A stretch of 64,000 bases of DNA from Escherichia phage CMS-2020a. This document shows, piece by piece, positions 3,086 to 54,764 of the stretch; position 1 is the stretch's first letter, and each line of letters begins with the position of its first letter. The notes below the pieces were generated by a model. The model searched no databases. It worked only from the letters and a program-made list of their open reading frames with translations, and had not been told where the DNA came from. Both the position numbers and the translations under genes were made by a program. The DNA lies in the sequence record CP054387.1; one strand, given 5' to 3'.

Positions 3086-3778
3086 TTAGACCATCCCTTT
3101 CTGGTGTCTTCTTACCTGCGACCAGGCAATGAATCCTGCCACAACAATAGTGGCAATACCGAAGATGATGCGTACTGTATCCCCACTAGAGATATGACCT
3201 TGTGCTTTATCCATAGCAGCGGAAACCTGCGGCATAACATCGGCCAGCTGCGCCAGACCAATACCTGCTGTAACAGTTGCGCCTGCTGTTTCTTTAGTTA
3301 CAGGAACAGCCTTCACGGTTTTCACCGGCTTAACGACTCCAGCTCGACGCAGACCTTCCTCAATAACTTCTGCCGCATACCAGGTGTTCAGCGTTTTTAG
3401 CGGACCTCGCCCATTCTCATGGCGAATGATTGCCTCAACCAAAGGTCGAAGGATGTCGTAATCATGCAGATCGATGATCATGTCTGCGGTTACACCAACG
3501 GCTTTAGACACCTCATTAATGTAGGCGTCAGTATTGTTTTCATTCGGCGGTGCCCAACGTTCAATAACTTCACGAATGGTATCGATACTTGAGCCGTCTT
3601 TTGCGCGACGTTTGTCGTGGTAGGTAATTAGAGTCACCGCCAGCGCACGAATCCCCCAAACAGGGTCTTTAAACGTGCAAAAGCGCGGTTCGTCTGGATT
3701 CGCAACCAGACCTTGCCACGGTGATCCTTTATCAAGATTACCGGGGTTATTATTACGAATGCCTCTCGGAGTCTTCAT
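3086..3778 (-). CDS. lysis-cassette protein, putative peptidoglycan hydrolase (endolysin-like) with C-terminal transmembrane segment
   Basis: ATG at 3778 with AGGAG 8 nt upstream (ORF track starts further upstream at 3805); sits between holin-like and spanin-like genes; C-terminal hydrophobic stretch IIFGIATIVVAGFIAW; catalytic family not identified. Confidence 0.4.
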   Translation of the reverse strand: MKTPRGIRNNNPGNLDKGSPWQGLVANPDEPRFCTFKDPVWGIRALAVTLITYHDKRRAKDGSSIDTIREVIERWAPPNENNTDAYINEVSKAVGVTADMIIDLHDYDILRPLVEAIIRHENGRGPLKTLNTWYAAEVIEEGLRRAGVVKPVKTVKAVPVTKETAGATVTAGIGLAQLADVMPQVSAAMDKAQGHISSGDTVRIIFGIATIVVAGFIAWSQVRRHQKGMV

Positions 3779-3791
3779 CCTTGTTCTCCTG

Positions 3792-4115
3792 TTATTGCAG
3801 TCCATTTTTTACGCCATATGCGGCTAATCCTAAAATTAGTGCGGTTATAATAAACGACGTCACTTTAGAAATAATGCCTCCAAAGAAGCCGCTTGAGATC
3901 GAATCTAACCTATTAAGTAGTTTATCCAGATTGGAATGTTGAATACTGTGTTGAGCCGGAGTCATGTCACCAAAATAGTTTTTCAACTGCTCATGAACCT
4001 CATGAACTATCTCCTCTCTGATTTCTTTTCCTAATTTACCAACAACTTCTCTGGCGACAATTTTAGCTATTCTCTCAACCTGATCATGAGTGACGCCTCC
4101 TACGTCATTAGCCAT
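3792..4115 (-). CDS. holin-like small membrane protein (candidate)
   Basis: 107 aa with a single C-terminal TM (FFGGIISKVTSFIITALILGLAAYGV); first gene of the putative lysis cassette; AT-rich upstream region. Confidence 0.3.
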   Translation of the reverse strand: MANDVGGVTHDQVERIAKIVAREVVGKLGKEIREEIVHEVHEQLKNYFGDMTPAQHSIQHSNLDKLLNRLDSISSGFFGGIISKVTSFIITALILGLAAYGVKNGLQ

Positions 4116-4810: not shown

Positions 4811-7800
4811 TTACTTCTCCCGAAGTTCTTTAATCTCATGACGAAGTGTTTTAAAGCCCTCGACTAACAATGCAATTATGCCGTTGTAGTTAAGACACAG
4901 ACGTTTTTCACCAGATATAACGTCTGTGTCTTCAGTTACCAGTTCAGACAATGCTTTTTGTGCATCCTGAGCAATTAAACCAACTGACGTTTTCCAACTA
5001 TCATCAGAGAGTTGGATTTCATAAAGATAACCAGTAAGTGCCTCCAAACGATCTAACGCATTATCTAGCTTTACCAGATTACGCTTGTTACGCTTATCTG
5101 AGCGGATCTGAACATCATTAAATGAGCCATTTCCATTTACAGTCAAATTACCTGTTATCGTACCCCCACCGATAGGCAAAGCACCAATTTGAGCGGCACT
5201 TATACTAATATTTTTTGTTCCGTCGAAACTTACTCCATTTATAGTACGTGCTGTTTGTAGCTTAGTTGCTGATGCTGCGTTACCAGATGTATTCTGATTT
5301 CCTGACGTATTCACACCTGGAAGATTAATGTTTGCGCTACCATCAAATGATACTCCACCTATTGTTCTTGATGTTTTTAATTTAGTAGCTGTTGCAGCAT
5401 TACCTGATGTGTTCTGATTTCCAGCTTTGTTAACGCCTGGTAAATCTATATTCGCTGTACCATCAAACGATACCCCCCCTATATTTCTCGCTGTTTTCAG
5501 TTTCGTAGCCGAAACTGCATTTCCATTTGAGGCAAGGGCGCCTATCTCTGAAGCCGTTGGTTTATTTTGAGAACTGTAATTACGACGCCATGTTGGGCTA
5601 TAGTTATCGCCGTTGTATGTATAAATAAACTCACTATTAAGAACAGCACCAGATGCACCTCCAGATGTTGAAGGTGTTGTAATGCGTATAGTGTAATTAC
5701 TTGTACCGGTTGAAAACACCTCAATAACAGAACCAGCAAGAGGTATAACTCCACATCCCGTTGATGCATTTCCTATATAACAGTTACTACCATAAGACCA
5801 GCTACAACGTGTGCTCCACTGAGTTGCATCAAATGCCCCTTGTGAATTTAACCATGCGACAAATTGTGCAGTTGTCCACTCTTGAGTATTCCCCGTAGCA
5901 AGATTAGCAACATATTTTGCTGCACCTAGTTGTTTTGGCGTGATGCTTATATTCTTTGAGCCATCAAAACTGACCCCATTTATTTTTCGTGCCGTTGCAA
6001 GTTTTGTCGCCGTTGCAGCATTACCTGACGTGTTCTGATTTCCAGCTTTATTGACACCAGGTAAGTCAATATTTGCAGTGCCATTAAACGATACCCCACC
6101 TATTGTTCTTGCCGTTTGCAGTCTCGTTGCGCTCCCTGCATTACCTGTTGTACTCTGATTTCCAACCTTGTTAACGCCTGGTAAGTCAATATTTGCAGTG
6201 CCGTCAAATAACATTCCACCAATTGAACGAGGTGTTGCTAACTTAGTGGCAGAGGCAGCGTTTCCACTAGTACTCTGAGTTCCTGTTGAGTTTACACCTG
6301 GTAGATTTATATCTGATGAACCATCAAACGGTACTCCGCCAATTTTTCGTGCTGCTTTTAATTTTGTTGCAGTATCGGAATTTCCGTTAAGTGAGCCTGC
6401 AAGACCATTACTAAATGTTTGCTTTGCACTCCATGTATTGGCTGTACTCAATAAAGGTATTTTATCGCCACTTGTTCCATTTTCCTTCAATCCAAGATAC
6501 TGAATAATCGCCTGTACACTTGCTTTAGAAAGAATATCTCGACCAACAGAAGTTATTGTTGCTAATCCAGCTGTATCATTCCCTGTAAAATAAGGAAGTT
6601 TATTAGCGGCTGTTGTTAGTCCAGCCAGTGCAGTCAGCGTAGCATCAAGAGGTTGTTTTGTGGCCAACTTGTTCGTCATTGTTGTGGCAAAATCGGGATC
6701 ATCACCCAAAGCCCTTGCCAACTCATTAAGAGTATCAAGCGCTTCAGGTGATGATCCTACAAGACCTGAGATCGCTTCTCTTACATAAGCAGTTGTGGCA
6801 ATTTGCGTATTATTAGTGCCTTGAGTCGCCGTTGGTGCCGTTGGTGTGCCAGTAAATGCTGGGCTGTTGATTGCTGCTTTTCTATCAGCAAGATCCTTTA
6901 CACTTTTAACCGCTTTTGTTGTTGCGGCCAATGATTCAGAGGCGTTATTTGTATCGCTACTTAATTGAACCAGCCCTTTTTGTGAAGTTGTCGCGTCATT
7001 TGCAGTATATTTTGATTTAGCAAGATCAAACGCAGCCTTTACTGCTTTTGGTGTTGCTGCAAATTCTTCTGACGAACTGCTCGTCTCACTGCTTAATTTG
7101 ACAATACCCTTCATAGTCAAACTGGCATCATGTAATGATATCGCTGACAAAGCTCTTTCTGCTCTAGTAGCAGCTATCTCTGCACGCTCTGCCGATGCAA
7201 GTGCTGATGTTTGGCTTTGCTTTGCTTCTTCTGCTTTAGCCGCAGATTCAGCTGATTTCGATGATGCGTTACTAGCACTAGTTGAGGCTTCAGCAGACTT
7301 TCGGCTAGCTTCATCCTTCGAAGCTCTAGCAGCAGACGCATAAGTTGAAGCCTGATTAGCGGATGTCTTCGCAGACCTTGCCGACTCTCTAGCCTGATTT
7401 GCAGAAGTTGATGCACTGCCAGCACCAGAAGCAGCATTCATTTCAGATAATTTTGCAGCCTCTTTAGAGACCAACGCAGCATTAGCCGAACTTGTGGCTT
7501 CTGTTGCCTTAGTGGAAGCTGTTGATGCAGAAATTGCAGCTGCGTTCTTCGCCTCTAAAGCACTTGTTTCTGATGCTTTAGCACTTGATGCACTTTTATT
7601 TGCTGCATTTTTAGACGCTGTAGCATCCAACGCACTATTAGATGCCTGAGTAGCCTTACTGCTTGCTAGATTCGCACTCTTCGCCGCAGCCGACGCACTG
7701 GCCGCAGCCTGTTTTGCTTTATCTCCTGCGGAATTAATTGCGTTAGTATTATTTTCATACCATTCTACGTGCTTATTATGCTCCGCGATAATCTTAGAAA

Positions 7801-14402: not shown

Positions 14403-15066
14403 AATGGATCACACCGTCGGCAAAATAATTCCGACGCGCATTACAGGCGTCATAACGTTTTGTGCAGTAGTCCGCACCAGACATAGACGTCTGCTGGTTA
14501 TTTTTGTCGAAATATGGACCGGTATAGCCGCATTCTGGCCCTCGATATTTCCACGGGCAGGTGTTTTTAATGATCTGACGATACGGCAGTTGCACCCCCA
14601 TCAAATCGAACACACTGGACAATTCAAACTCGACAACCTGATGAGTTTCGAGAGTTTTCTGTTCGATAAACCACATTTCATCGGGGAAATGTTGGTTTGG
14701 ATCTGCTGTTGGGTTGCCGTCTTTAAAATTAACGGCATCGAGGAAGCGAGCCAGCGTCATCTTGCGAATAATGCGGCAGCCAACAAGATCGTCGTTTGCC
14801 TGAACTTCCGCAGAGACGGTTCCGGCAAAGTTCGATACCTGAATTTTTGGACGTGGCAACGTTCCCTGGCCCGTTTTGTCAAAACCTGATGCTTTGATTG
14901 GCCACGGCTCGTATGTCACTCCTTGCCAGACGACCGGTTGCATCAGTTCGTTTGTTCCGGCGTGGAAGAATAGCTTCCCCCCTGAAGTTGTATTCGACAT
15001 ATCCAGTACGAACAACTCAATGAGTGCAGAGGGAGATAAGCTCTGAATATCAGCTTTAATTCCCAT
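14368..15066 (-). CDS. minor tail protein L-like
   Basis: Start moved to ATG at 15066 (AAGGA 8 nt upstream); MGIKADIQSLSPSALIELFVLDM...VVWQGVTYEPWPIKASGF and C-terminal Cys cluster CPWKYRGPECGY...C...C parallel lambda L. Confidence 0.85.
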   Translation of the reverse strand: MGIKADIQSLSPSALIELFVLDMSNTTSGGKLFFHAGTNELMQPVVWQGVTYEPWPIKASGFDKTGQGTLPRPKIQVSNFAGTVSAEVQANDDLVGCRIIRKMTLARFLDAVNFKDGNPTADPNQHFPDEMWFIEQKTLETHQVVEFELSSVFDLMGVQLPYRQIIKNTCPWKYRGPECGYTGPYFDKNNQQTSMSGADYCTKRYDACNARRNYFADGVIHFGGFIGATRYG

Positions 15067-29812: not shown

Positions 29813-30079
29813 TTACATCACCAGTAACTTCGCTTTGGCTCGACCTAAAGTGGTTAACCCAAGAGTTCGGCGGTGATAGCGATTGTCACTGCGTTGGCGC
29901 GTATGCCCTTTCTCCACCAGCCCCTTTTTTATCAGAGCGCGAATTGAGAACTGGATACTTTGCTTGGTTGTCTTGTACGGCAAAACTTCAAGCAATTCGT
30001 CCAGGTCAAGTAGATGACCTCGCTCATAACCGAGATTGAGCGTTTTGATGATGTCCTTTTGTTTATCGGTTAACGTCAT
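29813..30079 (-). CDS. winged-helix DNA-binding protein (putative regulator)
   Basis: 88 aa, basic C-terminus, directly upstream of palindromic element and terminase. Confidence 0.5.
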   Translation of the reverse strand: MTLTDKQKDIIKTLNLGYERGHLLDLDELLEVLPYKTTKQSIQFSIRALIKKGLVEKGHTRQRSDNRYHRRTLGLTTLGRAKAKLLVM

Positions 30080-46784: not shown

Positions 46785-47885
46785 ATGAGCGAGTCCAAAT
46801 CGCCGGATGCCCTGAGAGCAATGGTAGCCGGTACGCTGGCTAATTTTCAGCACCCAACCCTGAAACACAACTTGACTACGCTTAAAGCGTTACACCATGT
46901 TGCGTTGATGGATGACACACTGCATGTCGAACTAATCATGCCTTTCGTGTGGAATAAGCCTTTTGAAGACCTGAAAGAGCAATGTAGTGGTGATCTGCTC
47001 CGTATCACTGGCGCAAAGGCTATTGACTGGAAGCTGTCGTACAACATTGCCACGCTTAAGCGCGTCAAAAACCAACCAGGCATTAATGGCGTTAAGAACA
47101 TTATCGCCGTCAGCTCAGGCAAGGGCGGCGTGGGTAAATCCTCCACAGCAGTAAACTTGGCACTGGCTTTGGCTGCTGAAGGTGCGAAAGTTGGTATTTT
47201 GGATGCCGATATCTATGGTCCATCAATTCCAACCATGCTGGGCGCGGAAAACCAACGTCCAACCTCACCGGACGGTACTCACATGGCACCTATCATGTCT
47301 CATGGCCTGGCAACCAACTCTATTGGTTATCTGGTCACCGATGACAATGCAATGGTGTGGCGTGGACCGATGGCGAGCAAGGCGCTGATGCAGATGTTGC
47401 AGGAAACACTGTGGCCTGATCTGGACTATCTCGTTCTCGATATGCCACCGGGCACTGGTGATATTCAATTGACGCTGGCGCAGAACATTCCTGTAACTGG
47501 TGCGGTTGTGGTAACTACGCCGCAAGACATCGCGCTGATCGATGCGAAGAAAGGCATTGTGATGTTCGAAAAAGTCGAAGTGCCGGTACTGGGTATCGTT
47601 GAAAACATGAGTGTGCATATTTGCAGTAACTGCGGTCATCACGAGCCAATTTTTGGCACCGGTGGAGCACAGAAACTGGCCGAGAAATACAACACGCAGT
47701 TGTTAGGCCAAATGCCACTTCATATCTCTCTTCGTGAAGATCTGGATAACGGAACACCAACCGTTATTAGTCGTCCAGATAGCGAATTTACGGCTATTTA
47801 TCGTGACCTCGCAGATCGCGTTGCTGCCCAAATGTATTGGCAAGGTGAAGTAATACCTGGCGAAATCGCATTCCGCGCAGTGTGA
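46785..47885 (+). CDS. apbC: Fe-S cluster carrier ATPase ApbC/Mrp
   Basis: 366 aa; P-loop SSGKGGVGKSSTAVNLA, CxxC motif HICSNCGH; divergent from metG as in enterobacterial chromosomes. Confidence 0.95.
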   Translation: MSESKSPDALRAMVAGTLANFQHPTLKHNLTTLKALHHVALMDDTLHVELIMPFVWNKPFEDLKEQCSGDLLRITGAKAIDWKLSYNIATLKRVKNQPGINGVKNIIAVSSGKGGVGKSSTAVNLALALAAEGAKVGILDADIYGPSIPTMLGAENQRPTSPDGTHMAPIMSHGLATNSIGYLVTDDNAMVWRGPMASKALMQMLQETLWPDLDYLVLDMPPGTGDIQLTLAQNIPVTGAVVVTTPQDIALIDAKKGIVMFEKVEVPVLGIVENMSVHICSNCGHHEPIFGTGGAQKLAEKYNTQLLGQMPLHISLREDLDNGTPTVISRPDSEFTAIYRDLADRVAAQMYWQGEVIPGEIAFRAV

Positions 47886-47910
47886 TAAAAAGGCGGTGCA
47901 TTGCACCGCC
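47886..47910. terminator. bidirectional hairpin terminator between apbC and the HumD-like gene
   Basis: ggcggtgca-tt-gcaccgcc hairpin; T-run on the minus-strand side. Confidence 0.55.
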
Positions 47911-47922
47911 TAATCAGTTCTC

Positions 47923-48312
47923 CTACATCACAGGACAATCATCAAACTCGCCACTTCTTGCGTCGTTGATAATGTGAGTGATCACACCAAACACGGCATT
48001 GCTGCCCGTGCATCCATCGTCATCCTTTGGCAATGCTTCCTTCTTACCGGTTCTTAAATCCTCCAGATGCTGACGTGGAGACTTCCGGTATCTTTTTACG
48101 CGATATTCCCCATCCAGAGCGCATACAAGCAGAGAACCATCAACCGGGGTAAGTGAGGAATCAACCACCAGCAATGCACCCTGTAATATTCCCTCACGAT
48201 GATGACTATCAGCTGCTCTCATGAAGTAGGTCGCTGAAGGATGTCTAATTATCTGCTGATCAAGAGAAATACGGCTCTCAGCATAATCCGCCGCAGGAGA
48301 AGGGAAGCCCAT
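47923..48312 (-). CDS. UmuD-prime/HumD-like S24-family protein (N-terminally short, resembles processed UmuD)
   Basis: [37 protein letters not shown]... parallels UmuD from about residue 25 ([37 protein letters not shown]); Ser in DSH and Lys in VKRY retained; in-frame stop 4 codons upstream of ATG so no N-terminal arm. Confidence 0.85.
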   Translation of the reverse strand: [129 protein letters not shown]

Positions 48313-48328
48313 AGCGTTTTGCCCTCAA

Positions 48329-48348
48329 TACTGTTCATTTACACAGTA
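48329..48348 (-). promoter_or_regulatory. LexA box (SOS operator)
   Basis: Minus-strand TACTGTGTAAATGAACAGTA fits CTGT-N8-ACAG, 16 nt upstream of the HumD-like start codon. Confidence 0.8.
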
Positions 48349-48484
48349 TACATGAAAGAAGCTCACTCAGTGCAACTGATCGGTACATAGCACCAGACAA
48401 AGGAACGTTATTTTCTCGAACAAGAAAAGGTAGAAAACAAATTGTTTAAGGCCACAACTAGTGGCCTTAATGGAGAAGGGATGC

Positions 48485-49009
48485 TTATTGGCTATGGCTA
48501 AAAATCAAATGAGACACTTCATTTGGTTGTAGCTCGTCAAGATCCGGGGCCACAAAACCTTTTCCGAAAGACTTCACAAGTGATTCACCAGCCGCATCAT
48601 TGTCACCTATTACGCGAAAGTCATACGGCAGCATTGCCAGTTGACGACGTAATCCTGCTGAGAAAGTCGAACCTAACAGCGCCCACGAATTTCCGCCCGC
48701 GTTGTGCACTGCTGCACTTTTAAAAATCGACTCAGTTATCCATATCGGTCCATCTTTTAAAGGAAGATAGGTTCCCCATAGTAGCTGTCTGCCGTGCGCT
48801 CGTGTGAAATACCGGGCCATCTTCGGATTGCTATGCTGCTTAGGAGCGCCTGGTCTGTATGTCTGATACCCGGCCAACATCCCATCAAACCTGTATAGAG
48901 GGAATGTAACAACTCCTTCGCTTTCATCGATCCACTGTCTATATGGATGCACATCATAGCGGTAGTTACGAGTTAGCAAATGAGCTTCCAGCTTTCCAAA
49001 TTTAGTCAT
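48485..49009 (-). CDS. hypothetical protein (possible TOPRIM-like acidic motif)
   Basis: Start at internal Met MTKFGKLEAH; segment RVIGDNDAAGE resembles a DxD TOPRIM motif, weak. Confidence 0.4.
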   Translation of the reverse strand: MTKFGKLEAHLLTRNYRYDVHPYRQWIDESEGVVTFPLYRFDGMLAGYQTYRPGAPKQHSNPKMARYFTRAHGRQLLWGTYLPLKDGPIWITESIFKSAAVHNAGGNSWALLGSTFSAGLRRQLAMLPYDFRVIGDNDAAGESLVKSFGKGFVAPDLDELQPNEVSHLIFSHSQ

Positions 49010-49022
49010 AACTTCGCATCCC

Positions 49023-49877
49023 TCATAACACTTCCCATTTATCACCATATTTCTCCATAGCTCTTAGCCAATAAACATGGCCACTAGGCATAGTGATGTG
49101 AGGCTCGCCAAACTCTTCTCCATGTACATCAAAGATGTCCCCAACAGAAAATTGGGGGATTTCTGTTCCGTTTTCACCTATATGTGTAATTCGTATACGT
49201 TTCGGTTGGGATTGTCCACCTTTGAGCGAGTTGTTCACTGCTCTGGCAATTTTCTCCCGCAATTGCTGCGTTCCGTGATACGTAACCGCAATATCCCGCA
49301 ACTCATTCACTAGTTCTCGAATTTGGTGATCTTTAAGCTCATTATTTGGGTGATTGGTAACAACTCTGGTTAATTCCCCATTGTCTTTTGCTCTTACGTA
49401 TGCAGCTCTTGTGCATTCGCCCCATGTATTACCGCCTACATTAACTTCGTAGATTAGGCTGGACTTATCTGTCAATTCGGAACAAATACGGGCCGTGGTC
49501 TGGCAACTAGAGCATTCGCAGTTATCGCGGAAACCGTGGTCTACTGGCTTCGGTTTAACATCATCAACTTTTTCTACCCTATTGGAATTTAAATACTTCG
49601 AAGCCTTGCTATGCCAATCGCTGGTTTTAGGATCTTGTCCATCCATCAAACGCCAGGCTTCAGCTATTAACTCATAACTAGTGACTGTAGCTTCCTGCGC
49701 ATCACCAATAAGTCGTGTAATCTCTCTTTCAAGCCGACCGCCTAACTCCGTTTTAGTGCAATGTTCTGACCAATCGCCAGTCTCAAGAAGCGCGAGAATG
49801 CTTAAAATATCGTCCAATAGAACGGTAGTATTATCGACTTCCTTCTGAAACTCACCGGCTACTGATTTATGCATCAT
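49023..49877 (-). CDS. hypothetical protein
   Basis: 284 aa ORF with Cys cluster CECSSC. Confidence 0.45.
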   Translation of the reverse strand: MMHKSVAGEFQKEVDNTTVLLDDILSILALLETGDWSEHCTKTELGGRLEREITRLIGDAQEATVTSYELIAEAWRLMDGQDPKTSDWHSKASKYLNSNRVEKVDDVKPKPVDHGFRDNCECSSCQTTARICSELTDKSSLIYEVNVGGNTWGECTRAAYVRAKDNGELTRVVTNHPNNELKDHQIRELVNELRDIAVTYHGTQQLREKIARAVNNSLKGGQSQPKRIRITHIGENGTEIPQFSVGDIFDVHGEEFGEPHITMPSGHVYWLRAMEKYGDKWEVL

Positions 49878-50155
49878 TCGTCATCCTCATCCGAGTCATC
49901 CTCATCACAGGATGAGAGTAGTGGGTTAGTCATTCGCCCTACTTGAGTGGCGTAGCCACGCCGACAGAGATTGCGCAGCACACTGTATATTTCGAACATC
50001 TCGGTTCGTTCATCGCCAACATCAAGCTCAGATGCTATAGCGTGGCATTCAGTCGCGAGAGCCGATATTTTCTGAAATAACTCTGCTTTATTCACTCTTC
50101 GACTCCTGCGGAGGTTCTGGTAGCGGCATCCAGTGAGTTGCTTGCTCAATACCAT
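49874..50155 (-). CDS. hypothetical small protein
   Basis: 93 aa ORF overlapping neighbours by 4 nt, acidic C-terminus. Confidence 0.35.
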   Translation of the reverse strand: MVLSKQLTGCRYQNLRRSRRVNKAELFQKISALATECHAIASELDVGDERTEMFEIYSVLRNLCRRGYATQVGRMTNPLLSSCDEDDSDEDDE

Positions 50156-50663
50156 TACCCGGCTTAATCGTTACATCTCCGCGCCGAAAGGTGATTCCGG
50201 TATAGCGTGCGGAGCATATTAGCGGTTCAACCAGAGAGCTATCGAAATTCACCGAAATAAGCACGTTCTGGCCCTTTTCAGGCATTCGCTCACTACAGCT
50301 TATCCAACCATCCGGAGTTACCGGATGGGGTCCAGCGAACTCGGGAATGTCAGGACCTTTTCTGATAGCTTTAGCCAGATCCAGCGGGTCATCGTAAAGC
50401 CAGTCGCCAGTTTGTGGGTGATTTGCTTCTGCAAGCTGCGCAGCCCATTCAAGACCATCTTTTTGACCTTGGAGATAATCAAGCGGCAACTCTTCATGAT
50501 TACTTGCAGGTTCTGCACTATCAGCTTCGCGCCGCTTCTGTAGCTCTGCTGCCATCGCTCTCACGACTTCAACTGGTGCCCTTGCAGCAAACTCTATGTT
50601 GGTGATCAGCTCATTAAGATATTGCTCGCCTGGATACTGTTTCTTATCGGTTATAGTGGTCAT
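50088..50663 (-). CDS. DUF551-like phage protein
   Basis: Start at internal MTTITDKKQ; segment GWISCSERMPEKGQNVLISV matches the W-I-S-x-x-x-x-LPE pattern I associate with DUF551. Confidence 0.5.
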   Translation of the reverse strand: MTTITDKKQYPGEQYLNELITNIEFAARAPVEVVRAMAAELQKRREADSAEPASNHEELPLDYLQGQKDGLEWAAQLAEANHPQTGDWLYDDPLDLAKAIRKGPDIPEFAGPHPVTPDGWISCSERMPEKGQNVLISVNFDSSLVEPLICSARYTGITFRRGDVTIKPGNGIEQATHWMPLPEPPQESKSE

Positions 50664-50664
50664 A

Positions 50665-51051
50665 TCACTCTCCTTTTCCCTGAAGCATAGCAGCGCGGCA
50701 GGCATTCCAGCCTCTCACCTCTGCAATAGCGGCAACAGCATCAACCGCGTACATGCTAAGAGGATTAGGCATTGGTTTTTCTTCCGGTACTACTGGAACG
50801 GGTGGAGCGGCGTAGACCTCAATAATTCCATTATCAATAGGCCATTCTCCATCCTTGAGGTAGTCACTTGTGCCGTCAACTTGCTGTTCTGCAATGTGGA
50901 ATGCACCTATTGGTTTTGCTTCCAGCGATGCCAGAGCAATTCGTGCCAGTTCTTCCGCTTCTTCTGCTGGCAGTACAACGTTGCTACCAGGTCCGTATGT
51001 TTCGCGCCACTGTTTGATTGTCAGTAGTCGCTCTTTGGTAATAGTGGTCAT
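50665..51051 (-). CDS. hypothetical protein
   Basis: 128 aa; shares MTTIT N-terminus with the neighbouring gene. Confidence 0.45.
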   Translation of the reverse strand: MTTITKERLLTIKQWRETYGPGSNVVLPAEEAEELARIALASLEAKPIGAFHIAEQQVDGTSDYLKDGEWPIDNGIIEVYAAPPVPVVPEEKPMPNPLSMYAVDAVAAIAEVRGWNACRAAMLQGKGE

Positions 51052-51061
51052 GTGTTACTCC

Positions 51062-51325
51062 TTAACCCGCAGTGCTTTCAACTGATGAGGGGAACAAAAT
51101 CCTTTCATCAAATCCGGCATTCATATCATGGACAGCAACACACCAATCCATCGACGAACGATTATCAAGAGCCTCCATGATTTCATCCATGCGGCGCAGG
51201 TCATACAGGTAAATGCTTTTATCGCCAATGGTGTAAAAACCAATTTTTTTCGGTGATGGGCAGCGATCAAGAACGTCCTGTAATTCGTTCAACCATGCCC
51301 GTTCTTTTTTTGTTAAAGTTGCCAT
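51062..51325 (-). CDS. hypothetical protein
   Basis: Start at internal MATLTKKERAW. Confidence 0.4.
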   Translation of the reverse strand: MATLTKKERAWLNELQDVLDRCPSPKKIGFYTIGDKSIYLYDLRRMDEIMEALDNRSSMDWCVAVHDMNAGFDERILFPSSVESTAG

Positions 51326-51326
51326 A

Positions 51327-51848
51327 TCACTCTCCTTTGATGCGAATGCCTGCTGCAATGCTGTTTATGATGCTGTCAGTGCATGGAGTAGAAAGCTGGG
51401 CATCTCCAGCAATTTTCATGACCTCAACATCCGCATATCGAATACCGAGGTGTATCAGACCGGCTATACCTGACTTAAGTCGAACATTTTCCATAAACAG
51501 ATCTTTTTCCCGCTGTTTAGCGGCTTCCAACTCCATCGACAATTTTTCCAACTGCTCTTTATGCTTCTTGTATTCCTGATACGCGTGCCAAGACTGACCT
51601 TTGCGCACACTATCAGTGATATCAGCAACCTGCTCCGGTGTTAGCGTGGTCAGTGGCTGTGCTGGAAAAATCATCACTTTCCCGGCATCCCAATCAAAAC
51701 CCGCCTGAATTGACTGAACCTCAACTGATGGTGTTGAACCGATGCGACCAGGCGAATGAACAACGATCGTTACATCCATATCGCGACGATGGCTGTGGTT
51801 GTTGGACAAAATACGATTCACCAACTCAGAAAATTTGGAAAATTTCAT
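51327..51848 (-). CDS. Ea22-like early protein
   Basis: Start at [10 protein letters not shown] (ATGA overlap); C-terminus ...[12 protein letters not shown] matches the Ea22-family ending as I recall it. Confidence 0.55.
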
Positions 51849-52168
51849 GCTGATCCCTCTTTCTCTCCCCGGATAATTCTGTTGCACACATCCACACACT
51901 CGTCGCAGATGAAAACGGCGTCCCCAGCAATTAACTTTTTGACGGCGTACTGGGATTTGTTGCAGAAGCTGCAACAAAGTGTTCGCCTGACTGATAAGGA
52001 TGGAGCGCCAGATGTCAGCCGCTCCATATCGTTCTTGCGACGCAATATCACACGGCTGAACTCAACCAGTTTCTCCGGGGATATCTCCTCCTCCGTAGCA
52101 AGCGCCTCTAATCGTTCGAGTATGTGGAAGGCTTTTTTCTGGGTAATTGCAGAATGCGATGTGGTCAT
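51845..52168 (-). CDS. ClpX-type C4 zinc-finger domain protein
   Basis: Start at [10 protein letters not shown]; [27 protein letters not shown] resembles ClpX N-terminal zinc-binding domain. Confidence 0.5.
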
Positions 52169-52169
52169 C

Positions 52170-52700
52170 TCACTCTCCTTTGATGCGAATGCCAGCGGCG
52201 CGGGAATCATTCCATCGCTTTACTTCTTCACGAATTACGTCAATGCATTCTTTCGAATCCATTAGGTAATCTTCATCAAAAAGACGTTCCTGTTCGTTTT
52301 CTATCGCAACAATGATTGCTTCAACTAACTTTTGTGCCTGAGAATCACTTTCTAACTCTGCTATGCGCTTACTTCCATCCGAGATAACGCCCTCGTAATA
52401 CTCACGCTGCTCGTTGAGTTTTGATTTTGCCAACTCCAGTTGTTTTGTTAGTTCCGCAATACGGCAAACATCGTTGATACGCGTTTCCTCTAATGCGTTG
52501 ATCTCATCCAGTAGTGCCAGCACGGTTTCTGGTCCGGCCAGAAATTTGAAGGCGTTGAGGGCATCAATATCAACACCGCTATCTTTAAGTTCCTGTTCAC
52601 TTAACAAGTCATCATCAGCTGGCAACATTAACAGGCGTTCCATTGCTGGAATTGCACGTTCCGCCACCTCACGCAGTGCCTGGTAATTAATTTCGCTCAC
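52170..52700 (-). CDS. Ea22-like early protein (paralog)
   Basis: 176 aa, coiled-coil middle, C-terminus ...[12 protein letters not shown]; DNA tail tcactctcctttgatgcgaatgcc repeated at ~51325 and ~52168. Confidence 0.55.
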
Positions 52701-52941
52701 TGGCTGCCTCCTGCTTTTCTGCCTTCAACACCATGCGAGAACCATCATCCAGCTCCCACACTATCTCACCACCTTCAGCCATGACCAGTTGCCACACCAA
52801 TTGAGCAGCCTCATTGGTAACATCACGACCTGGATCATTGCCAACGCGCATACGTCCACCTTCAACATCGCGCATTTTTGCCAGCATGATAGTTTTTGAT
52901 AGCGGTGAAAAACCAAGCTGTAGTCGTGCTGAATTACTCAC
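52687..52941 (-). CDS. hypothetical small protein
   Basis: 84 aa ORF. Confidence 0.4.
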   Translation of the reverse strand: MSNSARLQLGFSPLSKTIMLAKMRDVEGGRMRVGNDPGRDVTNEAAQLVWQLVMAEGGEIVWELDDGSRMVLKAEKQEAASERN

Positions 52942-53480
52942 TGGTTGCCTCCTTTGCGAAGCTGGGCAGCAAAGTCAACTAACCACTCAGTCATTTCAAC
53001 CTTCCCTACCAGGTCTGAACCAGGGTGCATACAGCAATCACTCTGCGCCGCTTTGAAATCCTTATACTCATATTCTTGGGCCACCAGATTTTTTGCAGCT
53101 TCTATAGCAGCATCCACCCCCTGCGCACGTACTTCAGCCAGAAAAGCATCGGTGGCTGGAGTCTCCGTTAATTCGCTAACCCAATTATCTCCGTGTTCCT
53201 CGGCACACATCGCATCGAATGCTCGCTCAGATTCTTTCAGGGCTGCATTCTCCGCCGCTAATGCGTCTCTCTGCGCCCGCAACTTCTCAATTTCGGCAGC
53301 CATGTAGTAACCAACCATAGCGAAGACGGCAAAAGAGTTGTCTGCCTCATCAGGCGACACTGAGGCCATTAGCAGACCATCGTAATAATCGTGACTCCCA
53401 TTGGTGATCGCCACCTCATAGGAGTCGTGGTTCTCACGCTTGTGAATGAGAACTACGGGGTTTTCGATTTTGTTACTCAT
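52938..53480 (-). CDS. hypothetical protein
   Basis: 180 aa ORF; preceded on minus strand by hairpin plus palindromic motif block. Confidence 0.45.
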   Translation of the reverse strand: MSNKIENPVVLIHKRENHDSYEVAITNGSHDYYDGLLMASVSPDEADNSFAVFAMVGYYMAAEIEKLRAQRDALAAENAALKESERAFDAMCAEEHGDNWVSELTETPATDAFLAEVRAQGVDAAIEAAKNLVAQEYEYKDFKAAQSDCCMHPGSDLVGKVEMTEWLVDFAAQLRKGGNQ

Positions 53481-53618
53481 GTGTTTTTCTCTTCTTTGCT
53501 GTTACATAAGCACTACCAAGTGCTGGTTTATTTTCACAAATAAGAAAATGTAGAAAACAATTTATTTAAGGCCACAACTTATGGCCTTTATTTATTCATG
53601 CCGAAGGATTTGTAGCGT

Positions 53619-53999
53619 CTAATTGCCGTATAAAATGGGGTGAGGTGCTTGCCAGTAGGCTCCACCGGTCCATGTGAACCCCATGCGAATAAGAGTGTTT
53701 ATTGCGGCTTTGGTAGACTCCGATTCGACACTGGCTTTACGAAACTCTTGAACCTCTTTCGCCAACCTGTATGTAATTGTGCAGGGGACGATTGCAGCCC
53801 AGCCTTTCTCATGACTGTTAATGACCATCTGGATGTGACCATCCAGAATAGGTTGATTAGACATGTTATTGAAAATGTCTGCCTGTTTTTGAATGTGAAG
53901 AAAAAGCCTTGCCAGCTCCATTTGCTCACTACGAGACAAGGGATTATCAAGAGGGCTTTTTGCAAAAGCGGCTATACGCTGTGCGTCAATGCCAAACAT
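53619..53999 (-). CDS. hypothetical protein
   Basis: 126 aa ORF. Confidence 0.4.
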   Translation of the reverse strand: MFGIDAQRIAAFAKSPLDNPLSRSEQMELARLFLHIQKQADIFNNMSNQPILDGHIQMVINSHEKGWAAIVPCTITYRLAKEVQEFRKASVESESTKAAINTLIRMGFTWTGGAYWQAPHPILYGN

Positions 54000-54703
54000 C
54001 AGCGCACCTCACCATCTTTATGGCTGGAGTTAACTTCCGCCATTAAATGTCTGACGTAATCGACAAGAGAGCCACCTGGTGGAATCTGGCATTCCTCAAC
54101 TAACTGGAAGTAGATATCCGCAGCATTACGTGTATTGCTACCCGCGCATATTCTTTCTTCCCGAAGTGCATGAAGCTCGTTGATCAAACGGTCACACTCT
54201 CCGTTACGCTGATCCACAACAGCCTCAAGTTCTGCGACGCGTTCACCTGGCGTCTTACCTTCTTCGCGTTGGATGGTAACGACGAAATCGCCAATTGCAG
54301 GGACGTTGTAATCCAGCTCAAGGTAGTTTTTGGCACCGCTGCGGACGAACTCACCCGCGAACATGGTGGCGAACATCTCAGAGGCCATTGTGCTGTTGAA
54401 AAGTGACTCCAGATCTAACGGAGTCCCGGCAGCCAGAGCCTCTTTTGCTGTATCCATTGTATCCATGAACCGATCAAACTCATTAGCGCGCTTTTCCAGG
54501 TCTTTCCATTGCTCGCTCCAACGTTTGGCAATGAAGTCTATGAATGTTTTCGCGGATTCATCAAAATCCCCCTCAAACTTAACGATGCCTTTATCAATAA
54601 TGATCTGGCCTACCGCATCCTCTGCATAACCTTTCAATGTAAACTTGAAAGGAAAATCAGAATGGCCTGTGACGTTAAAATGCTCTAACTGGAGGTTGTT
54701 CAT
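53999..54703 (-). CDS. hypothetical protein
   Basis: 234 aa ORF. Confidence 0.45.
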   Translation of the reverse strand: MNNLQLEHFNVTGHSDFPFKFTLKGYAEDAVGQIIIDKGIVKFEGDFDESAKTFIDFIAKRWSEQWKDLEKRANEFDRFMDTMDTAKEALAAGTPLDLESLFNSTMASEMFATMFAGEFVRSGAKNYLELDYNVPAIGDFVVTIQREEGKTPGERVAELEAVVDQRNGECDRLINELHALREERICAGSNTRNAADIYFQLVEECQIPPGGSLVDYVRHLMAEVNSSHKDGEVR

Positions 54704-54764
54704 ATGTTTTTCTCTTATCGTTTAGTTATTACATTCTTACACAAATTAAGTAAGTATTTACCTA

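Follow-up and report, generated by a model that had tools for sequence, protein, structure and literature searches.

A repeated gene junction in the accessory-gene array of an SSU5-like phage-plasmid as a probable patch for homologous cassette exchange

What is repeated at the gene ends of a phage accessory array, and by which process was it spread? The question is raised by an ea-type accessory-gene array in a 64,000-nucleotide (nt) stretch of sequence record CP054387.1, the whole of which is referred to here as the window. On the minus strand of this array, two adjacent genes start with MTTITKERLL... and MTTITDKKQY..., and two open reading frames (ORFs) encode proteins that both end with AAGIRIKGE, as was rightly noted in an initial annotation (coordinates in Table 1). 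The same annotation took these ends for recombined module boundaries in a lambdoid early region carrying two Ea22-like paralogs. Judged by its sequence, the repeated object is a conserved gene junction, with a ribosome-binding site, a stop codon and a start codon, and not a trace of paralogy. This junction quite probably serves as a patch of identity for homologous cassette exchange in phage accessory arrays.

Copies and anatomy of the junction

The 24-mer TCACTCTCCTTTGATGCGAATGCC is found at exactly two sites of the window, 51327-51350 and 52170-52193, against none in 100 shuffles, and its coding strand reads GGC ATT CGC ATC AAA GGA GAG TGA (G-I-R-I-K-G-E-stop). These exact copies bear out the DNA repeat described initially, but the repeat is longer than was then seen, and a third copy at 50656-50694 had been overlooked. 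The family extends over 39 nt with 87% identity (GC.GC.GGCATTCGCATCAAAGGAGAGTGA-N-ATG-RC.AC) and runs past the stop codon, the spacer and the next ATG. The three direct copies, J1, J2 and the diverged J3, lie in one array of apparently operon-like organisation.

On the minus strand, the layout is ...GGCATTCGCATC AAA GGA GAG TGA N ATG. The K-G-E codons AAA GGA GAG contain the strong Shine-Dalgarno (SD) motif AAGGAG, located 6 nt ahead of the ATG of the next gene, and the stop TGA and this ATG are 1 nt apart. In J1, the last codons include 52180-52175 and are followed by the stop TGA at 52172-52170, the 1-nt spacer and the ATG at 52168-52166. The two features by which a coupled junction is recognised in sequence, an SD motif inside the upstream coding sequence and a stop codon near the start codon, are thus both present, in the form TGA-N-ATG. 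Given the 1-nt spacing, the genes on either side of the junction are therefore probably translationally coupled along one transcript.

As for J3, it ends the 128-amino-acid (aa) protein as ...CRAAMLQGKGE and stands before the second MTTIT gene. Over 70 nt (50656-50725 vs. 52161-52230), its identity to J1 is 70%, and the corresponding protein tails are 56% identical over their last 18 aa. The core AAAGGAGAGTGANATGRC occurs three times, vs. 0.01 expected, and ATGACCACTATWACC, the first 15 nt of both MTTIT genes, occurs twice in the window and never in shuffles. A chance origin of the repeats was rejected, since the shuffles give 0 expected matches. An RNA element at the junction was likewise discarded: an Rfam search of positions 47500-55000 gave no match at E<=1, and the RNA folds of the three junctions were no more stable than those of shuffles (z of -0.69, 0.14 and 1.0).

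Concerning paralogy, only the 176-aa protein matches the Pfam family Ead_Ea22 (PF13935; E 7.6e-24, 85.3 bits for a cutoff of 27). The 173-aa protein has no match at E<=0.01 in the Pfam search, which places it outside this family, and in BLASTP the two proteins share only their 9-residue tail. Nor does BLASTP find anything significant in common between the two MTTIT proteins beyond MTTIT itself. Paralogy was consequently rejected for both pairs, their likeness ending at the termini. A recent tandem duplication within the replicon, followed by divergence of true paralogs, could be suspected from three direct copies within 1.5 kb and from the similar sizes of the genes; it is hardly credible, since no similarity is detectable outside the junction and each flank is matched by near-identical homologues of its own, in different phages. 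The outcome that the initial annotation had named as its own refutation, a similarity limited to a few residues, was therefore observed for the proteins, while the similarity of the DNA is highly non-random. In short, a module boundary had been correctly sensed in that annotation, which nevertheless gave it the wrong labels, paralogy and lambdoid early region, and missed the ribosome-binding site, stop and start.

Reassortment of the flanking genes

The flanks of the array are 95-99.5% identical to the closest relatives, whereas the array itself is mosaic. Homology to CMS-2020a begins exactly at the ATG at 52168 (J1), stops at 51335 (in J2) and resumes exactly at the ATG at 50663 (J3). The same two positions apply to Cyrano, for which homology stops at 51335 and resumes at 50663; that to PhiR41_1 stops at 51345, inside J2. 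In PhiR41_1, CMS-2020a and Cyrano, the homologue of the 173-aa protein ends with SIAAGIFTKEGAAR or SIAAGILTKEGSAR and an ATGA overlap. The view, put forward in the initial annotation, that recombined module boundaries are present here is thus supported: the homology of relatives starts and stops at the junctions, and many unrelated flanks are joined by this junction elsewhere. Ends of high-scoring segment pairs located at most 20 nt from gene starts made up 27.6% of all ends, vs. 8.7% expected if uniform, in what is a biased sample.

The exact 28-mer GGCATTCGCATCAAAGGAGAGTGANATG was found in at least 120 IMG/VR contigs; the figures given below for this database cover the matches listed. For 88 unique contexts of 300 nt, anchored on the stop codon, the mean pairwise identity is 0.3-0.4 outside about -30 to +8, and 1.0 by construction inside the junction pattern. 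Similarity drops to near background within about 10 nt on either side of the block. When upstream proteins were clustered on the 60 residues before the tail, and downstream proteins were clustered too, the upstream C-termini fell into 12 classes and the downstream proteins into 21, occurring in 49 combinations. This procedure replaced a single-linkage clustering of full-length upstream proteins, which merged nearly all of them because they have Ea22 N-termini and coiled coils in common. Among the upstream classes are the lambda Ea22 C-terminal domain, an HNH endonuclease (PF13392, E 3e-18) and a protein whose match to the Mom family is weak and below threshold. As a whole, the block, which covers the last 7-10 codons, the stop, 1 nt and the ATG, has what is expected of a boundary sequence: it is short and conserved, it separates unrelated flanks at gene boundaries, and these flanks reassort.

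When GIRIKGE-stop was scanned for with all its possible codons, the identical 24 nt stood in 132 of the 146 tails listed, and the other 14 had a single synonymous change. Such near-invariant synonymous sites argue that the block is shared by DNA descent and not by convergence of the peptide. The variants in the core scan were too few for an estimate of the dN/dS of the tail to be meaningful. On the two sides of the invariant 24 nt, linkage switches: sites -26, -24 and -22 are associated with the upstream class (Cramer's V of 0.62-0.90) more than with the downstream class (0.41-0.49), while sites +3, +7 and +8 follow the downstream class (0.82-0.94 vs. 0.33-0.74), all these values being inflated by sparse classes. 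Such a switch is what crossovers within the block would cause.

These crossovers would take place by homology within the block. As the genes of many unrelated pairs are separated by the same block of about 24-39 nt, in phages of the lambdoid, P22-like and Stx types as well as in P1-like and SSU5-like phage-plasmids, this block would offer a patch where homologous recombination could swap whole upstream or downstream cassettes while leaving reading frames and translation signals intact. Phage recombinases of the Red, RecT or Erf type, or the host RecA, would be the agents, and the block would correspond to the 'short conserved boundary sequences' or 'linkers' of modular theory.

In the Hendrix model, where random illegitimate recombination precedes selection for intact genes, the likeness of the junctions would instead be a convergent one, imposed by the SD, stop and start. 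The bare 16-nt core AAAGGAGAGTGANATG is indeed present, with unrelated tails, in clearly unrelated environmental phage contigs, so that the core alone can arise independently; moreover, other junctions of the array use other solutions (ATGA, GTGA, TAAGGAG). The 12 nt that precede the SD (GGCATTCGCATC) are nevertheless not needed for translation, yet they are synonymously identical in ~90% of cases, and independent illegitimate events would have left differing joints rather than the same 28-mer in 49 flank combinations. Convergence is accordingly considered very unlikely.

Alternatively, the C-terminal peptide, (R)AAGIRIKGE or W-x-x-x-RAA...KGE, could be a functional, portable tail for docking or degradation, with the DNA repeat as a by-product. 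Its presence on 12 unrelated C-terminal domains would fit this proposal, as would the pattern W-N-x-x-R-A-A...K-G-E common to J1 and J3 in spite of a DNA identity of only 70%, the retention of the tail by lambda Ea22 without a coupled downstream gene, and the '+GE' end common to Ea22 proteins, the significance of which is given as unknown in the relevant passage of PMC7093339. Selection on the peptide alone, on the other hand, does not predict almost invariant synonymous sites. Similar junctions also show nonsynonymous variants (DIRIKGE, NIRIKGE, DIGIKGE, NTGIKGE and VICIKGE), the tail is carried as well by the HNH endonuclease and by the protein with the sub-threshold Mom match, and K-G-E coincides exactly with the SD of the next gene. 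A functional tail is thus judged unlikely as the cause of the repeat; it is compatible with homologous exchange at the junction, and the points just listed argue that the tail is mainly a hitch-hiker.

Outside the window, the junction is present in several reference phages. In HK620, an exact copy lies between hkaG and hkaF, and hkaE starts with MTTITKER. The P1-like phage JL22 (Punavirus) has an exact copy after its Ea22, and the first 30 residues of its EaA protein are the same as in the 128-aa protein of the window. Stx phages carry the junction too. Since they are found in lambda, HK620, JL22 and an SSU5-like replicon, the junction and its modules are in circulation in no fewer than three temperate backbones unrelated to one another. 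Lambda ea22 ends with ...GCTGGCATTCGCATCAAAGGAGAGTGAGATCGG, a junction in which ATC replaces the ATG; the replaced start codon, followed by ~190 nt of non-coding DNA and then ea8.5, suggests that a cassette once stood behind lambda ea22 and has since been lost. This orphan junction, near position 29847 of NC_001416, reads ...AAAGGAGAGTGAGATC.

Several points weigh against exchange at the junction as the full account. With its 24-39 nt, the block is close to the minimum that efficient homologous recombination requires. The IMG/VR loci were chosen by the junction itself and include many near-duplicates, which biases the frequencies. Lambda retains the junction without a downstream ORF, and the tail may therefore have a role at the protein level or another one. 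Finally, many breakpoints are intragenic, for example at 50320-50339 and 52420-52439, the start of the DUF551 domain at ~50325 being one of several intragenic hot spots. Exchange at the junctions is consequently only part of the mosaicism.

Further exchange points indeed appear to lie inside genes, at domain borders. In the Ea22-like protein of the P22-like phage VSe13, the first 66 residues are 97% identical to the Ea22 of the window, and the final ~65-70 are almost the same as the C-terminal part of the 173-aa protein. The DUF551 protein shares its first 54 residues, at 91% identity, with an otherwise different protein of Stx phage P27; these N-terminal 54 aa are a separate module. That P27 protein (3596-4102, MTTITDKKQYP...), encoded after the junction, reads ...RSDAMLQGKGGGYGYCRKLHHASLL; it continues past a degenerate copy of the MLQGKGE junction and ends with a short tail foreign to this context, as though a former junction had lost its stop. 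As for the shared start of the MTTIT genes, ATGACCACTATWACC begins genes in 72 of the 226 fetched loci, behind at least 8 types of upstream junction, and opens an EaA-type N-terminal module (...ELARIALASLxAEP) that is followed by various C-terminal domains. MTTIT is accordingly read as the conserved first codons of this module. The motif GWNACRAAMLHG lies inside long EaA-DUF551 proteins of other phages, so that the 128-aa and 191-aa genes of the window look like a split version with J3 in between.

The array, its genes and its replicon

The initial placement in a lambdoid early region did not survive the comparison of the whole window, although the gene families of the array (Ea22, EaA-like, DUF551 and DUF7446) are those of lambdoid ea/exo-xis regions. 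Positions 44-64 kb are 100% identical to the ~108-kb Shigella sonnei plasmids LR213459.1 and CP104415.1, and 99.7% identical to p09EL50, a non-mobilizable plasmid of E. coli O104:H4 2009EL-2050. The latter host belongs to the outbreak lineage. Positions 20-44 kb match the ~108-kb phages PhiR41_1 and CMS-2020a at 95-98%, and the virion genes therein match Salmonella phage SSU5 at 81%. From these matches, the replicon is assigned as an SSU5-like phage-plasmid of ~108 kb, and a lambdoid prophage context was ruled out by the plasmid identity and the SSU5-like virion genes. A lambdoid early-left (exo-xis/ea) region lies between the recombination genes and int/xis and is transcribed from pL; the array has another setting, with no exo, xis or int nearby. 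Its neighbours are metG (methionyl-tRNA synthetase), apbC, an S24 peptidase gene, a gene for a toprim protein, DUF4942, rnhA and a methyltransferase gene. The S24 (UmuD/LexA-like) peptidase gene, at 47923-48312, is ~3.5 kb downstream of the ClpX-zinc-finger gene.

Pieces of the array were found in 471 phage records, mostly of Stx, lambdoid and P22-like phages, none of which covers at least 80% of it. Among plasmids, 808 have pieces of the array, but only 6 hold at least 80% of its 5.2 kb, vs. 60 for the surrounding 20 kb, which makes the array a hypervariable spot; it varies among phage-plasmids that are otherwise 95-99% identical. A stop/start overlap or a 1-nt spacing is found at nearly every gene junction, the junctions outside the repeat family being GTGA, ATGA, TAAGGAG-N7-ATG or overlaps of 8-14 nt. 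The coding strand of the array yielded no consensus promoter, and the search for terminators gave one weak hairpin only and none that was convincing. Autonomous cassettes with their own promoter and terminator were thus set aside, the weak hairpin being the only such signal on that strand.

A 64-nt direct repeat (48408-48471 and 53528-53591, 86% identical) brackets the array. It contains a hairpin, AAGGCCAC-loop-GTGGCCTT, and a further copy is located elsewhere in PhiR41_1, at 14437-14480. It may be a terminator/promoter element that SSU5-like phage-plasmids carry repeatedly between genes, and that sets the limits of the variable array.

Gene coordinates (Table 1) agree with the RefSeq annotation of p09EL50. 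The Ea22-family gene, the product of which ends with AAGIRIKGE, is followed, directly after J1, by a gene for a stand-alone ClpX zinc-finger protein, whose stop overlaps the start of the next gene (ATGA). This 107-aa protein consists of an uncharacterized N-terminal half and a PF06689 domain, without the AAA+ module, and it could interfere, as a decoy or competitor, with the binding of ClpX adaptors or substrates. In the chimeric 173-aa protein, which also ends with AAGIRIKGE, the C-terminal ~65 aa correspond to the C-terminal module of some Ea22 variants: the stretch of ~70 aa that begins near residue 100 and closes the protein is almost the same as the C-terminus of VSe13's Ea22-like protein, the whole BLASTP alignment giving 60% identity over 126 aa. 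The 87-aa gene is 95.9% identical in DNA to VSe13 and is a common downstream cassette after the same junction in other phages (class D4/Dn2).

The 128-aa gene has the EaA-type N-terminal module and matches the front part of the longer EaA-DUF551 proteins. In p09EL50, this MTTITKER gene (6666-7052) is missing from the PLSDB gene table, which does list the genes on either side; RefSeq may lack an annotation for it or may treat it as a pseudogene. Downstream of the DUF551 gene, a mechanically predicted ORF of 93 aa (49874-50155, minus strand, ATG at 50155) overlaps that gene by 68 nt. Its real start is likely the GTG at 50095 (73 aa), preceded by AGGAG, because the PHROG match covers residues 21-93 and the PhiR41_1 and p09EL50 annotations agree.

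Table 1. Positions in the window of the array, its repeated junctions and the genes that they join
Feature	Position	Strand	Description
ea-type accessory-gene array	48485..53480	-	tightly packed genes, operon-like
Ea22-family gene, 176 aa	52170..52700	-	GTG start; Pfam PF13935; ead/Ea22-like in p09EL50
Junction J1 (Ea22 gene / ClpX-zinc-finger gene)	52161..52199	-	reads GCCGCTGGCATTCGCATCAAAGGAGAGTGAGATGACCAC
Stand-alone ClpX C4 zinc-finger gene, 107 aa	51845..52168	-	MTTSHS...; Pfam PF06689, E 1.3e-15
Chimeric gene, 173 aa	51327..51848	-	from MKFSKF; phrog_6026 match over N-terminal ~110 aa
Junction J2 (173-aa gene / 87-aa gene)	51318..51356	-	reads GCAGCAGGCATTCGCATCAAAGGAGAGTGATATGGCAAC; 24-mer of J1 at 51327-51350
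87-aa gene	51062..51325	-	MATLTKKER...; phrog_1714
128-aa gene	50665..51051	-	MTTITKERLL...ELARIALASLEAKP...GWNACRAAMLQGKGE; phrog_60, phrog_660
Junction J3, diverged (128-aa gene / DUF551 gene)	50656..50694	-	reads GCTGCTATGCTTCAGGGAAAAGGAGAGTGATATGACCAC; tail ...AAMLQGKGE
DUF551 gene, 191 aa	50088..50663	-	MTTITDKKQY...; Pfam PF04448, E 6.8e-22

Known counterparts and significance

The boundary sequences of lambdoid phages, a concept set out in a passage of PMC3029335 that cites Clark 2001 (HK620) and Susskind & Botstein 1978, are the closest counterpart. They too are short conserved blocks at gene boundaries, between unrelated flanks that reassort, and the very same junction is found in HK620 (hkaG/hkaF) and at the end of lambda ea22. 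The difference is that an SSU5-like phage-plasmid and a P1-like phage both carry the junction described here, and the exchange would therefore cross phage families. A text search of the literature for 'IRIKGE', which did not extend to Clark 2001, returned no paper.

In the relevant part of PMC10834534, ea22 genes are described as mosaic, with variable C-terminal domains, and Dydecka et al. 2020, in the passage of PMC7093339 on the Ea22 termini, report that every Ea22 protein has a '+GE' tripeptide at its end. With the Ea22 of lambda and Stx phages, the 176-aa protein has in common the N-terminus, the coiled coil, a variable C-terminal domain and the K-G-E end; the differences lie in the replicon, with no exo, xis or int nearby, and in a second AAGIRIKGE protein that is outside the Ea22 family. 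The junction offers a simple explanation for this tripeptide: '+GE' would be AA(A/G) GGA GAG, i.e. the predicted SD of the next gene within the conserved junction.

Like ordinary coupled junctions (ATGA, TGAnATG, TAATG) of phage and bacterial operons, the junction described here has its SD within the final codons of the upstream gene and a gap of 1 nt between stop and start; a block of 24-39 nt conserved across dozens of unrelated gene pairs sets it apart from them. Integron attC cassettes resemble the array in that small, promoterless accessory genes of the same orientation are exchangeable at repeated sites, but here there is neither an integrase nor any sign of an attC-like structure, the site lies within the coding sequence, and the exchange would be homologous. 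An integron-like cassette system, in which a dedicated enzyme (a homing HNH endonuclease or a site-specific recombinase, for instance) would act on the repeats, would agree with the HNH genes located beside the junction, or fused upstream of it, in some loci, VSe13 among them. This association is sporadic, no recombinase or HNH gene is present in or beside the array in the window, the junction is inside a coding sequence, and the folds of the junction RNA have z values of -0.7 to +1.0 vs. shuffles, inverted repeats in the block not having been searched. An enzyme of this kind is extremely unlikely.

A bolder extension of homologous exchange at the junction would see in it a selected, cross-family 'cassette linker', i.e. 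a recombinase-agnostic shuffling platform in lambdoid, P1-like and SSU5-like replicons that would resemble an integron in function, with termini (the tail and M-T-T-I-T) that might be protein signals, e.g. for regulated proteolysis; the gene for the ClpX zinc-finger protein directly follows one of the junctions. This extension is speculative, and we regard it as decidedly unlikely.

Whether homologous exchange at short linkers or illegitimate recombination followed by selection is the main source of phage mosaicism has long been debated. The junction makes an uncommonly clean case for the linker model, and one amenable to experiment: a single block of 24-39 nt, present in lambda itself, stands between dozens of unrelated gene pairs, in at least three backbones of temperate phages. 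The phenomenon as such is a known one, of which the array is a clear textbook-type example that leaves current concepts unchanged. What it adds is minor, namely the explanation offered for '+GE' and evidence for exchange between lambdoid phages and phage-plasmids, lambdoid-type accessory genes being in circulation in the phage-plasmids of Shigella sonnei and E. coli O104:H4.

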